From a virus (lineage: Duplodnaviria > Caudoviricetes): a DNA stretch of 52,465 nt. Shown in pieces: positions 24,602 to 37,892 of the stretch (positions are counted from its first letter, which is position 1; each line of letters begins with the position of its first letter). The notes under the pieces were generated by a model. The model was given only the letters and a program-made list of their open reading frames with translations. It was not told the origin of the DNA and did no database searches. The DNA is taken from positions 1 to 52,465 of IMG/VR virus record IMGVR_UViG_3300045944_000450; one strand, given 5' to 3'. The translations under genes were made by a program, and so were the position numbers.

Positions 24602-26734
24602 ATGCGTAGAGTGCCCTGGGTAGTTACGTTCCTCTGTGTCCTGGTGTGGCTGCTGCCTTCTTGGGCCTACGCCGCCAATGAGACGGCGACAGACCCGGTG
24701 GCGATGGTGCGGCAGCGGATCGGGGATCTCGTGGGCTCGTACATCACGAGCGGCTGTCTGCCGACGGTGCCTGCGTCGTCGCTGACCCTGGCGGCGTTTG
24801 CCTGTGAAGGGGCGGTGGCCGAGGGACGCAGTTCGATTCCGGTGAGTCAACCTGCGGCAACGGTCGGGCCGCTCAGTGCCACGGCGGGCAGCTACTGGAT
24901 TGCTCTCTACAAAGACCGCACCACGACGGTGGGCGGGTGGACGCACCAGTTGGGGACACACTATCTCTGGCAGGCCAGCGCGACGCAACCCGCCGATCCG
25001 GCAGGCGGGACGGTCATTGCCCAGGTGACGGTGGCAGGCTCGGTCATTACGGGGGTGGCCGATTACCGGCAGCCGGTGAGCTATGTCCAATCGGGCGTCT
25101 ACGATGTCACCGATCCCCTCTATGGGGCCCGGTGTGATGGCACCACGCATGATACGACGGCGATCCAGCAGGCCCTTGCTGGCGCCCGCACCGGCGCTGT
25201 GGTGGCCCTGCCGCAAGGCACCTGCCTGGTCAACGCACCGCTGGCGATCACCAAAGCCCTGGCCCTCCATGGCGCTGGCATCGGGCAAAGCATTCTGAGT
25301 CAGGCCACAGCGGCACAAGCGGTGCTCACGAACAGTGCTAGCAACGTTCGCCTCCAGGGCTTCACGGTGCGTCATCAGGGAACCCCGGTGGCCGGGGGCG
25401 ATGGCATTGTCATGACCTCCGCCAGTGGGGTCGATGCCGTCTACCTCGAACACGTTGAAGCGCTGCACAACTGGCGGGGCTTTGTCCTGGGCTGTGCCTC
25501 CTACGGCTGGGGCAGTCATCTGCGGGCGCAGCAGAATGACTCGCACGGCTTCGAGTTTACCTACGGGGCGGCCTGCGGGACGGCGCAATGGGACATCGGC
25601 CATAGTCTGTCGCAACTCAATAAAGGCACGGGCTTTGCGGGCGTCAACACGGCCTCGCCGAATGGCATTGGCCCGTGGCTGACCCAGACAGTCAGCTTTG
25701 GCAATGAGTTTGGCGGGTATTCGTTTGATGGCAGCGCGGGCCATCCGATTAACGATCTCCGGCTGAGTGGGGTCATTAGTAGTGGCGATAACCGGGGCGG
25801 GATTTTTCTGGATACCTACGGGACCGGACATCTCCTGACGGATCCCTGGGTCGAACTGGCGGGGCAACTCGCGGGGCTCCCGCAGGGCTCGGCAGGGACC
25901 GCCTCAGTGGCGAGTGGCACGGGGCATGGGCTGCGCGTCACGAGTAACACCCTGACAAGCGGCGTCACGATTACGGGCGGGCGCTACTGGAATAACTCCT
26001 GGAGCGGCGTCTCGATTGATGCGGCCTATGTGACGCTGACGGGCGGAACCAGTCTCGGCAATGGGTTAGCGCATGATGCCGACCTCTCACGCCGGGCCGG
26101 GGTCCACATTGGCAATTCCGGGGTCAGTGTGAGTGGGCATACGTTTGGGTATCTCAATGCGCCGGCGACGCTGCATCATATCCACCTGGGCGGCACGCTG
26201 CTGGATCTGGCCATTGGACAGAACGCCTATCAGCCTGGGCTCAGTAACGCGGATTTTATCCATGGGGCCGATGCGGTCCTGGCAACGACGGTGCAACCGA
26301 TCATGGCGGCGGGCCTCATGGTGCATACCGGTACGCCTGAGGCGTTTGCTCTGGGTCTGGTCGATGCGAATGTCGGGGCGCCCAATGGCCTCAAGTTTCT
26401 CCGGGCGGCCGCGGGCAATCTGGAAATCCTCGGGGCCGATGCCACCACGGTCTTGTCCCGGCTCTCCAATACCGGCACGCCGAGCTGGCCGGCGCGGCGG
26501 GGGCAGCTCACCATTGCCGATGCCAATACGACGGGCGTGGTCACGCTCAGTCCGAGCGAGCCCGATGCGAGTTACTTTGTGCAACTGACCGCCAGCGCCG
26601 CGGCTGGTGGACCTGCATCAGGGGCCTATACCGTGGGGGGCGTGGTGAAAACGTCATCAACATTTACTGTAACCGTGACAGCCGCCCCGGGGGCTGGCAA
26701 AAGCGTCACGTATGATTGGTTTGTGCATCGCTGA
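24602..26734 (+). CDS. Tailspike-like parallel beta-helix protein (pectate lyase 3-type) with signal peptide
   Basis: MRRVPWVVTFLCVLVWLLPSWAYA leader; VTDPLYGARCDGTTHDTTAIQQAL...LPQG motif; C-terminal FTVT...VTYDW domain. Confidence 0.8.
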   Translation: MRRVPWVVTFLCVLVWLLPSWAYAANETATDPVAMVRQRIGDLVGSYITSGCLPTVPASSLTLAAFACEGAVAEGRSSIPVSQPAATVGPLSATAGSYWIALYKDRTTTVGGWTHQLGTHYLWQASATQPADPAGGTVIAQVTVAGSVITGVADYRQPVSYVQSGVYDVTDPLYGARCDGTTHDTTAIQQALAGARTGAVVALPQGTCLVNAPLAITKALALHGAGIGQSILSQATAAQAVLTNSASNVRLQGFTVRHQGTPVAGGDGIVMTSASGVDAVYLEHVEALHNWRGFVLGCASYGWGSHLRAQQNDSHGFEFTYGAACGTAQWDIGHSLSQLNKGTGFAGVNTASPNGIGPWLTQTVSFGNEFGGYSFDGSAGHPINDLRLSGVISSGDNRGGIFLDTYGTGHLLTDPWVELAGQLAGLPQGSAGTASVASGTGHGLRVTSNTLTSGVTITGGRYWNNSWSGVSIDAAYVTLTGGTSLGNGLAHDADLSRRAGVHIGNSGVSVSGHTFGYLNAPATLHHIHLGGTLLDLAIGQNAYQPGLSNADFIHGADAVLATTVQPIMAAGLMVHTGTPEAFALGLVDANVGAPNGLKFLRAAAGNLEILGADATTVLSRLSNTGTPSWPARRGQLTIADANTTGVVTLSPSEPDASYFVQLTASAAAGGPASGAYTVGGVVKTSSTFTVTVTAAPGAGKSVTYDWFVHR

Positions 26735-26745
26735 GGAGAGCCTGT

Positions 26746-27237
26746 ATGCGGGTGTCTGGTCGTGCCCTGGGAATAATGCTCCTAGTGGTGGTGCCTCTGG
26801 TCGCCATACTCGTATGGGCGCAGACCATCCACAAGGAGACCGTGGTCTGGGATTTTGTGAATGGGTTGAAAAGTCGCGGCGTGTGGGTCGCCACCGTCGA
26901 GGGCAGCCCTGGCGAGCCTGGTATGGGGGGCGAGGCGTGTCAGGCGCGGAATGTCTGGATCAACCTCGCCGGAGGAGGGGCTGATATTGTTGTGGGGGCA
27001 AGCCCGATTGCGATTCTCGGATCCAATGATACGCGCTGCCAGGCTATCATTCGCAACAAAGGGGGGGCGTCCATGCGCTGTCTGCCGACCAATCAGGGAA
27101 CGCCGAGCGCCAGTGTGGGCCAGGAATTTAGCGCTGGAGAGTTTCTCCTGATGGGCACATCGAGTCGTCCTGGCTGGCAGTGTATTCGCACGACAGGGGC
27201 CAATACTCTGGTCACGATTGTTGAGGAGACACCCTAA
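26746..27237 (+). CDS. Putative exported beta protein
   Basis: GAGGAG RBS; MRVSGRALGIMLLVVVPLVAILVWA leader; 4 Cys in the mature part. Confidence 0.75.
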   Translation: MRVSGRALGIMLLVVVPLVAILVWAQTIHKETVVWDFVNGLKSRGVWVATVEGSPGEPGMGGEACQARNVWINLAGGGADIVVGASPIAILGSNDTRCQAIIRNKGGASMRCLPTNQGTPSASVGQEFSAGEFLLMGTSSRPGWQCIRTTGANTLVTIVEETP

Positions 27238-29195
27238 TGCGTCGTTCCTCGGTTTGACCCTCCCCATAGCTACAGCTAGGGGATTCCCGACGCCACCTCA
27301 CGGTGGCTCTCGTGGCCCAGTCCAGGCCCGGAGGAATGATGCATAGCTATCACACCCATAGCCCATCGTTCCGCCTTACCGACCCGCTTCGCTCGCCACG
27401 GTGTCTAGAGAAGCGCACCGATGCGGTTCAGTTCGGGGTGTTGACAGAGATGTTCACCTGTCTGTTCAACCTATGGCCGCCTGTACGGCAAGTGCTCGTA
27501 GGTCAACAGAGAGGGGCAAACCATCCGACACGGCTGACACAACACGCATGGCAGCAGATTAAGTGTCTGACTCTCTGGCGTTTCACATTTTACGTGGTGG
27601 ACTCCCCACCACAACGCCTTATGCGAAGTATCAAAGAGCTGCTGAAAGTGTAGCACAGTATGCCAAACAGAAACAGTAAACAAAGCCTAAACAAGCAGCA
27701 CAAAAACCTTAAACAAACCCTATTCGGCCTTCAGCCGAACGCTTCCTTGACCCCATCGCTAAAGCAAGGGGGTTGCGGAAGCGGTTTGCTCGTCCTCCTG
27801 GCGCTGGCGGTGCTCGCCGGCTTCCTCCTGGGACCGCGCCCCGTGCCGGCGCTGCTCTGGTTTTCCAGCGGTGGGGGCGGGGGAAGCGGTGGGGGCGGTG
27901 GCGGGCCAGTGACGGATGCCGACATTCCTGACCTCAACACGCTCTCGACGGGCCTGACAGGCGGGCGCTGCGTGGAAACGGATGCCCTCGGCTTTCTGAC
28001 CACTACAGCCGCGGCCTGTGGTGTGGGGGGGAGCAGTGGCGCAGGCGAGGTGATCGAGATCACCACGACGTATACCGTACCTGCGAGTGACTTTGTGGGA
28101 TCGAAGACGCTCGCGGTCAGCGCGGGAGCTTTTACGATCACCCTCACGTCTGTTGCCTCCCAGCCGGGCATGGGCACCTTTATTACGATTATTAATTATA
28201 GCGATGGCCCCGTAACCATTGCTCCAGATGGGCAGACCATCAACGAGGACATTACACCACTTGTCCTCCCTGGCTCAACCCCGCAAGCACCAAGTTCGGC
28301 ACGGATCGTCTCCACGGGGACAGCCTACATTGCCAGTCTCGCGGGACAAGATTTGCCGCTGAGTAAACTGCCCATCATTGAGAGCCAGACATTGCTTGGC
28401 CGTACGACGGGTGGCACAGGATCGACGGAAGTCCTGACCACGCCGCAAGTCAAGACTATGCTGGCCATTGACCAGGTGGATAATACCTCTGATGCGGCCA
28501 AACTGAGTGCAGTGGGTGTCTTAACCAATAAGCTGGTGCTCGACCGGGTCGTGACTCCGACCGTTGCCAGCAATACCATCACGCCCGACCTGGATCTTGG
28601 CGATGTTTTTACTCTTGATGCGATCTCCGCCAACCTCACCATCGATGCGCCCATCGGCACCGGGGGCAAGCCGTTTAACGAAGAGTGGATCATCTTTCGC
28701 TTCAAAAGCTCGACGCCTCGCACGCTCACTTGGAACGCCATCTTTACCGCTGAACATGGCATCCCCCTGCCCACGGCAACGACCGGCGATGGCACAACGG
28801 TGGACCGCATCAAATTCGTCTACAACTCGACTACAACGAAGTGGGGGCTGGTCGCTTCAACGATTGCGGTCATTCGGGACGTGACGACCTTGGCCTCTGG
28901 GACCACGTATACCTGTAATGCGGACCTCGCGTCCGCCTGTGAGATGCAGATGACGGGAGCCGCCGGCACACTCACCATTGCCGCGCCGACCGGCACGCCC
29001 AGGAATGGCCAGCAACTCATGTTCAGGATGCTGTGTACCAATGCCCAGTCTCTTAGTTTAAGTAGTATATTCATTGGGAGCCCAAACGTGCTTATTGGTA
29101 GCCTCATGTGCCCGGCAGACCTAACCAAGTGGTATGCCATTGGCGCTATTTATAGTTCTGTTTTGAATAAATGGCAAATTTACGCAACTAACTAG
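27237..29195 (+). pseudogene. Signal-peptide-bearing tail-fibre-like gene interrupted after codon 5 by an IS200/IS605-type element
   Basis: Coupled ATG 27237 (MRRSSV) is in frame with LVLLALAVLAGFLLGPRPVPA resuming at ~27789; poly-Gly linker; two tandem C-terminal LTI.AP.GT...FR repeats. Confidence 0.75.
27254..27787 (-). mobile_element. Non-autonomous IS200/IS605-family element with no recognisable tnpA/tnpB; the ~27787 boundary is uncertain by about 3 nt
   Basis: Related subterminal hairpins at both ends (CCCCATAGCTACAGCTAGGGG and CCCCATCGCTAAAGCAAGGGG); - strand ends GGAATCCCC...GGGGAGGGTCAA; removal of 531 or 534 bp restores the host frame. Confidence 0.78.
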
Positions 29196-35218: not shown

Positions 35219-35501
35219 TCAGATAGTCTCGCCCCCGCCGGTAAAGTCAGGCAGCCCATCCCCATCGAGACAGTGCCACAGGTGCAGCACCTCATGGATA
35301 TTGACATGGTTGCTCCGGGGCGGCATGACCTGAATGGCCTGGCGGTCGCCGCCAATAAACAGCTCTTTGACCTCGCTCATCTGTGGCCAGGACGGGAGTT
35401 GGCCGCCACGCAGGGACACGCTGACATGGAGCCATCGGCGGGCGTCAGCATACTGCGCACAGGACACCAAGACGCGCAAGCGTTCATACTTCGCATAGGC
35501 T
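35219..35501 (-). pseudogene. 3' part of a conserved phage gene disrupted by the transposon
   Basis: WLHVSVS...PSW...HVNIH..LHLW; joins in frame to 39392-39552 across the TSD, giving 144 aa. Confidence 0.85.
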
Positions 35502-37412: not shown

Positions 37413-37892
37413 ATGCAAGAGTATATTCAGCGTCTTCAAGCAAGAAAGAGAGAGATAGCAAAAAGAATGAAAGACTTGGAAAAGTACATTCGTGAAGTTC
37501 AACAGCTTGACAATGAATTGCAGCATATTGATGCCATATTACATATGCATGTAAAAACTGAGGAAACATTAGAAGAACCCACTGGACAAATCCCCTATAT
37601 TCATATACTATATAGTCATAATAACAGGAAAATTCCTTCTGGCATAGCCAGACATATTCTGGCTCTTTTTGCTGACAACAACAAACCTCTCCCCATCAAT
37701 ATGATCCATCAACGCCTCAAAGAGCAAGGTATCAACACTAGCATGTCAGGCGTCAATACTGCTCTACGTCGAAACACGGTTTTTTTTGAACAGATAGAGA
37801 AGTTCTTTTGGAGGCTGAGGATAACAGGCCATCAGGAGGTGAGCCAAGAAGAGAGCCAACCAACGCTAGCAGAAGAGGTAGTGGCACAATGA
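37413..37892 (+). CDS. Coiled-coil plus winged-helix-like protein
   Basis: AAGGA RBS; N-terminal heptads; ILALF...PLPINMIHQRL...VNTAL...F.....WRL. Confidence 0.65.
   Translation: MQEYIQRLQARKREIAKRMKDLEKYIREVQQLDNELQHIDAILHMHVKTEETLEEPTGQIPYIHILYSHNNRKIPSGIARHILALFADNNKPLPINMIHQRLKEQGINTSMSGVNTALRRNTVFFEQIEKFFWRLRITGHQEVSQEESQPTLAEEVVAQ

Follow-up and report, generated by a model that had tools for sequence, protein, structure and literature searches.

The DNA considered here, referred to as the window, is the whole of the viral record IMGVR_UViG_3300045944_000450 (Duplodnaviria; Caudoviricetes), which comprises 52,465 bp with an estimated completeness of 88%. In the tail-fibre-like region of this soil phage, a stretch of 535 bp (27254-27788) is lodged between two genes of the plus strand, and its G+C content dips to 0.49-0.54, against 0.60-0.72 in the surroundings. 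Sequence comparison confirms this stretch as a non-autonomous, protein-less IS200/IS605 element of the type known as palindrome-associated transposable elements (PATEs). Read along the minus strand, it comprises a left end, a terminator-like hairpin, an extended -10 word, a conserved 5' leader with a boxA-like word, a middle domain and a putative omega RNA scaffold that includes the right-end hairpin. An earlier note, made from the letters of the window, had proposed a stand-alone guide-RNA cassette for a TnpB protein supplied in trans, and this proposal gains support from scaffold homology, end types, the leader, and the setting of a TnpB-less phage beside TnpB-rich genomes.

The ends of the element are built around two imperfect hairpins, CCCCATAGCTACAGCTAGGGG (27262-27282) and CCCCATCGCTAAAGCAAGGGG (27751-27771), given here on the plus strand, each with a bulged base, placed in direct orientation and contained in a 32-nt direct repeat of 78% identity. 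Terminal inverted repeats are absent, and subterminal imperfect hairpins lie at both ends instead, as is characteristic of the IS200/IS605 family. A degenerate hairpin pattern matches the window twice, against 0.00 matches expected, and is carried by at least 114 stretches of viral contigs. The related hairpins at both ends and the minus strand ending in TCAA, both described beforehand, were thus recovered. The right end (27254-27286, minus strand) consists of GAAT (27286-27283), the imperfect hairpin (27282-27262), AGGG and the predicted cleavage word TCAA (27257-27254), which closes the minus strand and reads TTGA on the plus strand. The left end (27741-27788, minus strand) consists of CAAACC, an outer stem GCTTCC (27782-27777), GCAAC, the hairpin (27771-27751), TCAA and the returning strand of the outer stem, GGAAGC (27746-27741). 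GAAT presumably pairs with TCAA, and we take these end words to agree with the words of IS608.

Divergence of the flanks sets in immediately behind TCAA in each of the 13 distinct subfamily copies, and the right end is therefore taken to stop at 27254. The placement of the left boundary is uncertain. GAGCAA is found at the left end in all 10 copies, preceded by T in nine of them and by C in the window, and the boundary was placed after GAG (27788) by analogy with sister subfamilies, in which TTAC, TTAT or TTAG is followed by C (TTAC/C, TTAT/C, TTAG/C) at the same distance from the outer stem; 27785 and 27791 would also be possible. These sister subfamilies carry AAAG ahead of the left hairpin as well, with TTAC outside, and a pairing rule between the two words can be read by eye, position by position, as AAAG/TTAC, AAAA or AATA/TTAT, and AAAC/TTAG (L002, L159, L160, L158, L163, L010-type and L056). 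The window subfamily, with GCAAC and T/C-GAGCAA, departs from this rule, which does not identify its target word. A 7-nt repeat, CGGTTTG, flanks the window copy; with the boundary at 27788, one occurrence is the first 7 nt of the left end, and the other is made up of the 3 nt that close the right end and 4 nt of adjoining flank. We infer the mobility of this copy, its target-adjacent motif (TAM) and its left boundary from sequence. The flank beyond TCAA, ACCGAGGAACGACGCATTAGGG (27232-27253, minus strand), is read as the putative guide; the stop codon of the upstream open reading frame (ORF) of 173 aa, at 27235-27237, falls within it. Here the earlier note had been correct in the letters of the flank; it had further supposed that these match the uninterrupted allele, and no such allele was seen.

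The orientation of the element follows from its relatives. In these, the 3' end of tnpB carries the end of the form GAAT, hairpin, AG..GTCAA, and the outer-stem end is located upstream of tnpB or tnpA; the sense strand is therefore the minus strand of the window, with its right end at 27254. Seen along the strand on which the hairpin pattern is written, oppositely oriented genes in other viral contigs have their 3' ends directly beside the end composed of TTGAC, 3-5 nt, hairpin and ATTC. By Pfam, the hairpin-adjoining genes were TnpB in 8 of 8 tested and Y1 TnpA in 2 of 2, and the minus-strand orientation claimed earlier is borne out by the end types at these loci.

The lack of a recognizable tnpA or tnpB ORF, remarked upon at the outset, was likewise upheld by profile searches. 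When the whole 52-kb record was searched with stops read through, neither PF07282 (TnpB) nor PF01797 (TnpA) gave a match at E<=10, and the ORFs inside the element yielded no Pfam family beyond weak Fer4 noise. A decayed tnpB coding sequence, which the earlier note had listed among the findings that would together refute its proposal, was considered and rejected: tblastx against tnpB elements matched the two ends only, and the TNB domain was not found. In blastn and tblastx comparisons with the tnpB-bearing elements L202 and L206, the matches were again confined to the two ends, and the interior showed no likeness to tnpB.

The strongest likeness to the guide RNAs of TnpB lies in the 206 nt that precede the right end. 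This putative omega RNA scaffold (27254-27459, minus strand) comprises 11 helices, including the right-end hairpin. A covariance model, designated R1, was built from the alignment of four protein-less copies over approximately 200 nt before the right end; among these copies, 23 of the 52 predicted pairs showed compensatory changes, and the window scored 206 bits. In the genome G002, R1 found five strong protein-less copies and eight further matches of 72-95 bits (contigs C28, C12, C178, C108, C51, C149, C118 and C252), each of which overlaps a TNB-domain match and runs about 90 nt past its end. These eight matches at tnpB 3' ends fall at the position where the guide (omega) RNAs of TnpB lie. 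Across 41 genomes, namely G002 and its relatives, only two were matched by R1.

In an alignment of 17 sequences, 90.9% of the pairing cells were complementary, against 76.8% in shuffles and 36-49% with slid partners, and 34 of the 52 pairs had changed on both sides where 18.7 were expected; none of 500 shuffles reached any of these measures. It can be seen in this alignment (A3) that the tnpB-linked copies hold an insert coding for the zinc finger and RuvC-III in the loop of one helix, and that the protein-less copies have lost the insert and kept the helix. The scaffold in the window no longer encodes the TNB domain. Taken as sequence and structure together, the 206 nt before the right end are supported as a homologue of the RNA overlapping tnpB at its 3' end.

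The covariance analysis that had been suggested therefore gave a positive outcome, with 206 bits for R1 and compensatory changes in 34 of 52 pairs. The suggested Rfam search brought no family for the window; the relative L160 did match, giving 42 bits with HgcC (E 1.7e-8; gathering score 50) as well as a match to sot0042. The single-sequence fold of the 408-nt RNA had a z-score of -3.05. Among the stems described in the earlier note, that at 27594-27612 is retained through covariation, that at 27293-27306 corresponds to helix 10, and that in the region of 27399-27420 to helix 4. The stem at 27440-27470 is not supported: it can form in the window, but a comparison by eye shows that its 5' arm lacks complementarity in the close relative L164.

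Between scaffold and leader lies a middle domain (27460-27573, minus strand), which is shared with L164 and partly with L180, with GCCGTACAGGCGG invariant in all three sequences. Covariation in this domain is weak (three sequences), and there is no likeness to tnpB.

Upstream of these parts, the element carries what appears to be an expression module of its own. Just inside the left end, a terminator-like hairpin, GTTCGGCTGAAGGCCGAAT (27740-27722), is followed by the T-rich tract AGGGTTTGTT (together 27740-27712, minus strand), in agreement with the second hairpin and U tract noted beforehand. Hairpins of unlike sequence with T-rich tracts occupy the same place in L164, L180, L160 and L163, and in the tnpB element L202. 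The hairpin probably serves as an insulator against transcription arriving from outside. An extended -10 of the form TGnTAYACT, TGCTACACT, is present as claimed at 27647-27655 (minus strand), with a predicted start near 27640. The same or a similar word recurs in relatives as TGCTACACT (L180), TGCTATACT (L159), TGGTATACT (L164), TGATACACT (L160) and TGGTATAAT (L002), just upstream of the leader or, in L159 and L160, 70-80 nt before it. A strict two-hexamer promoter scan called nothing at 27647-27655.

The conserved 5' leader (27574-27646, minus strand) contains a boxA-like word and the helices P1 and P2. The word, GCTCTTTGA, was found where it had been predicted (27639-27631), 7 nt after the -10. 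The outer helix P1 (27627-27621 with 27588-27582) covaries. In the inner hairpin P2 (27612-27606 with 27600-27594), 98.7% of the cells pair across 11 sequences and five of the seven pairs are compensatory; at most 1 of 500 shuffles reached any observed measure. By the single-sequence fold and an alignment of the leader (A6), the boxA word can pair with CAGAGAGU, just after P1 at about 27577-27570, and in 6 of 10 members its C-or-T position changes together with its partner when A6 is read by eye. Altogether, these alignments support the view that relatives carry the -10, the boxA-like word and the hairpin of 27594-27612 at equivalent positions.

The likeness to boxA was assessed against known forms of the word. 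The window sequence GCTCTTTGATA agrees with 10 of 11 positions of GYTCTTTAANA, a published gamma-proteobacterial consensus, and several leader copies in the genome G001 equal GCTCTTTAACA exactly. No 16S gene was found in G001 or G002, hence relatives of G002 were used for ribosomal RNA (rRNA) leaders, and in 12 of 22 of these G[CT]TCTTTGA stands 48-208 nt before 16S. Within the window, GCTCTTTGA has three exact matches against 0.32 expected. The further words lie at 37717-37725 (minus strand) and 35362-35370 (plus strand), and that at 37717 is preceded by a promoter-looking stretch, TTGACG...TGATACC; the phage may have a boxA-type antitermination of its own.

A second covariance model, R2, describes the leader and scores 80.4 bits on the window. 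It found 16 copies in G001 and a further 10 in G002, and G012 yielded none. When the sequence downstream of these 26 leaders was searched by tblastn with nine TnpB queries (up to 1,500 nt, some loci being shorter), tnpB was found in 0 of 26, the sole match near a leader being a 26-aa right-end remnant. Over 138 further sources, R2 matched only the window, L002, L066, L056, L053, L101 and L169, and no match lay inside the tnpB-bearing elements searched. Leader matches occur in five viral contigs, including the window, although the matches L053 and L101 are not tied to element ends. Among the sources searched, the leader is found only in protein-less elements.

A search for copies with different flanks and for tnpB-bearing parents, as the earlier note had advised, returned both. 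The scans used an interior motif of the minus strand, consisting of GTTGTGG, 11 nt and CCACGTAAAATG. Exact matches were obtained in one other viral contig, where a protein-less element of 343 bp is present twice (L002 and L066), in copies that are 97% identical and differ in their flanks; in genome contigs, where 2 of 2 were protein-less elements (L158 in a Chloroflexi and L159 in a Proteobacteria metagenome-assembled genome, MAG); and in metagenome contigs, where 6 of 6 were protein-less elements, one of them repeating L159. These motif-bearing relatives are protein-less, measure about 330-540 bp and share the same order of parts. A loose version of the motif gave 44 stretches in viral contigs, 42 of which were judged by eye to be chance; L002 and L066 were kept for their flank similarity and end hairpins. 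L164 is a full-length relative of the window element, and by blastn in G002, the genome of L159, L178 and L180 belong to the window subfamily. The same order of parts is seen in L056, a further protein-less element carried by a phage. A blastn search of the element against phage and plasmid records matched the hairpin only. As for mobility, the family has several copies at different sites, and the window record itself holds one.

The parents are found in G002, a 6-Mb MAG labelled Proteobacteria with an unusually heavy load of TnpB and TnpA. L202 consists of a left end, a tnpB (414 aa; OrfB_IS605 and TNB, confirmed by Pfam) and a right end, and the window resembles it with 83% identity over 46 nt at the left end and 79% over 62 nt at the right. 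In L206 the parent is complete: a tnpA of 162 aa and then a tnpB of 426 aa stand between its left and right ends, the domain matches coming from the genome search. TnpB-domain matches number 26 in G001 and at least 150 in G002, and Y1 TnpA matches 7 and 21, respectively; the leader-bearing protein-less copies are multi-copy in these two bacterial genomes, which are rich in both proteins.

Other arrangements of the same hairpins were observed in viral contigs. Single-hairpin mini-units of about 55 nt (L030, L037, L040, L064, L080, L089, L098, L100, L103, L109 and L110) have their hairpin flanked, on the pattern strand, by a right-end-type TTGAC at one side and by a left-end-type tail (...GATAA) at the opposite side, and they may be one-hairpin derivatives or end-to-end junctions. 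L041, L082 and L091 each carry a pair of hairpin matches, spaced by about 321 nt and bordered by distinct flanks at either side, and may form another protein-less subfamily, with GTCAGC...GCTGAC outer-stem ends.

Sequencing runs provide a hint of expression. A soil RNA library holds a 184-nt contig that covers 27424-27607 with one difference, together with diverged contigs (seven differences each) at 27308-27380 and 27549-27607. The hint is weak, since the contigs carry neither strand nor ends and the library may hold DNA. The whole stretch is present in five soil DNA runs, which may be the source of the DNA, and diverged copies of the element occur in different surroundings in two further runs. 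Among four soil runs, none gave a joint bypassing the element, the two joints in X6 belonging to a diverged copy. Uncovered parts in X6, X7 and X10 were not counted as evidence, and the small word shares of X8-X10 are uninformative on habitat. When the fibre protein was used to look for an uninterrupted locus, no relative was found in viral contigs; its 25 homologues, with at most 60% identity and variable N-termini, offered no usable uninterrupted allele.

The genes around the element belong to the fibre region. The upstream ORF of 173 aa (26716-27237, plus strand) has no Pfam family and resembles the N-terminal part of a fibre-like homologue, P0001, which joins such a part (VWDF.NGL..RGV) to the C-terminal part of the fibre; this layout suggests modular shuffling of fibre genes. 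The downstream fibre-like ORF (27660-29195, plus strand) has its listed start at an ATG inside the element. Its native start may be the TTG at 27218 or 27221, or the GTG at 27809: TTG 27218 comes into frame with the fibre ORF if 532 or 535 nt are removed, and GTG 27809 is suggested by the homologue P0002. The frame of ATG 27660 (27660-27790) runs into the fibre-like ORF with no stop and adds a 43-residue N-terminal extension rich in lysine and asparagine; the ATG inside the element could rescue translation if the native start were cut off. Directly upstream of the fibre-like genes, an ORF of 710 aa (24602-26734, plus strand) has a pectate-lyase-like domain (PF12708, E 5e-10) and is probably a tailspike depolymerase.

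The reading that best accommodates these observations is that the element is a PATE derived from an IS605-type parent (left end, tnpA, tnpB, guide RNA, right end), whose sole cargo is a guide-RNA gene on the minus strand; its probability is put at roughly 0.72. By this account, a resident Y1 TnpA of the IS605 type would move the element as single-stranded DNA, and the internal extended -10 would drive an RNA of about 390 nt. The boxA at the 5' end of this RNA would recruit NusB/NusE, such that the untranslated RNA escapes Rho termination; alternatively, pairing of the boxA word would provide a protective 5' stem. A TnpB made elsewhere would bind the 3' scaffold, and some 16-20 nt of phage DNA past TCAA (ACCGAGGAACGACGCATTAG...) would guide it to cut phage genomes in which this site is free of the element, a role for the flank that is drawn by analogy from the TnpB literature. 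Recombination with an occupied copy would then restore or spread the element.

Several points weigh against this account. The boxA begins 1-3 nt past the predicted start and is predicted to be paired, so its conservation could be structural rather than a matter of Nus binding. Fitting to the model, as was done for the 17-sequence alignment A3, favours pairing, and many of the double changes in A3 split just two clades, tnpB-linked and protein-less. Rfam gave no match on the window at E<=10 beyond miRNA and snoRNA noise with E>1. The support for expression comes from RNA contigs that give no strand, ends or level and may derive from DNA, and it is weak. Neither an empty site nor a second insertion of the exact element was found among viral loci, homologues and soil runs. 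The base before GAGCAA is C and not T, so that the empty site might be a poor target for TnpB. Lastly, the encounter of this phage with a TnpB of the matching clade is presumed.

Some of these points would also be expected of an inert relic, that is, an internally deleted IS605 copy that decays in the phage with an inherited structure and no present function. The record holds one copy only, neither an empty site nor an excision joint was seen, the base before the left end is unlike that of nine other copies, and protein-less copies devoid of the leader do exist (L178 and, by short spans, L195, L197 and L199). Decay would not readily explain why compensatory changes keep the helices among protein-less copies, in 23 of 52 pairs, why a conserved and covarying leader is multi-copy and absent from the tnpB elements searched, or why both end hairpins and TCAA are intact in the window, and such a relic is considered unlikely. 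The same conservation bears on whether the RNA acts independently of TnpB cutting, as an antisense or regulatory RNA of the fibre-gene region, as a decoy for the host TnpB, or as partner of a nuclease-dead TnpB relative. Its transcript would run antisense into the junction of two plus-strand genes, tnpB-linked copies have nothing that corresponds to its long 5' part of about 180 nt, and over-expression of a PATE-derived RNA improved the growth of Halobacterium according to one study (PMC4615843). The conserved parts are, against this, the TnpB-type scaffold and the right end and not the flank, and flanks that differ from copy to copy fit a guide taken from the landing site; RNAs of this kind seem quite improbable here.

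The element lies at the 5' end of a phage structural gene or close to it, a position that also calls to mind an IStron, a self-splicing intron with IS605 ends that would excise from the mRNA of the fibre gene; a figure legend in a 2023 IStron preprint mentions protein-less elements with IStron ends. The sense strand of the window element is opposite to the phage genes, and no Rfam intron family matched either strand at E<=10, which leaves this explanation with very little probability. The guide-RNA gene remains the preferred reading, and from it a bolder and only tentative proposal can be drawn, one with the odds against it: the leader-bearing protein-less IS605 derivatives would form a distinct and widespread guide-only class of mobile genes that lost tnpB, along with the protection afforded by its translation, and gained an rRNA-type boxA leader to recruit Nus factors and thereby allow production of a long untranslated guide RNA, and the phage cassette would arm the host TnpB against co-infecting relatives that lack the insertion. 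A parallel role of boxA is reportedly known for CRISPR arrays.

If the guide-RNA gene is read correctly, the guide RNA of a TnpB can survive as an independent mobile gene, about 0.5 kb in length, that carries an insulator, promoter, boxA leader, scaffold and guide. Should the boxA leader work as proposed, Nus-factor antitermination would be linked to the guide RNAs of transposons, and it could be explained how untranslated guide RNAs escape Rho after the loss of tnpB. Phages could borrow the TnpB of the host to exclude or convert competitors; were the guide-only proposal true, they would hold a gene drive or competition weapon at a cost of about 0.5 kb. In practical terms, R2 offers a simple handle for finding such elements, with 26 copies in two genomes, and a compact scaffold free of the coding insert of its parents may interest those who trim guides for TnpB editors.

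In the wider context of known systems, protein-less PATEs with guide RNAs are already in print, and the core reading of the window element is of a known kind. In Meers et al. (preprint, PMC10055086), PATEs are said to "often encode" guide RNAs that need TnpB in trans, as noted for Geobacillus stearothermophilus, and the IS605 model given there has a TnpB guided by the flank cut element-free sites and thereby retain the element. A 2015 study of Halobacterium (PMC4615843) reports a transcribed PATE-derived RNA, VNG_R0052, with a right-end-like tetraloop; it also reports that sot RNAs overlap the 3' end of tnpB and that HgcC and sot share such a tetraloop. A boxA-type leader, its limitation to protein-less copies and its recurrence in phages were not found in a literature search over the main texts of papers. 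No literature was found with both "boxA" and "TnpB" as whole words, and a search on the boxA variant as letters brought unrelated papers only. The expression leader of the window element looks new.

Set beside the IS608/IS605 group, the window element shares the imperfect hairpins near both ends on one strand and a scaffold that in its parents overlaps the 3' end of tnpB, whereas tnpA and tnpB are absent and the zinc finger/RuvC-III insert is deleted from the helix loop. With regard to the Rfam families HgcC (RF00062) and sot0042 (RF02656), L160, which shares the leader and the type of right end, matches both over its scaffold; the window scaffold, with no match at E<=10, belongs to a different subfamily that R1 captures. 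The boxA leaders of rRNA operons, as presented by Baniulyte et al. (2017, PMC5725501), have the same word shortly after a promoter, where a long untranslated RNA begins; in the window the context is a mobile guide-RNA gene, and pairing of the word with a strand further downstream is predicted. The known PATEs, like the window element, have no protein gene, share their ends with tnpA/tnpB elements and carry at the right end an RNA that would need a TnpB from elsewhere. Judged by the main texts of the papers, the window element is set apart from them by its location in a phage and by its dedicated module of insulator hairpin, extended -10, boxA-like word and two-helix leader.

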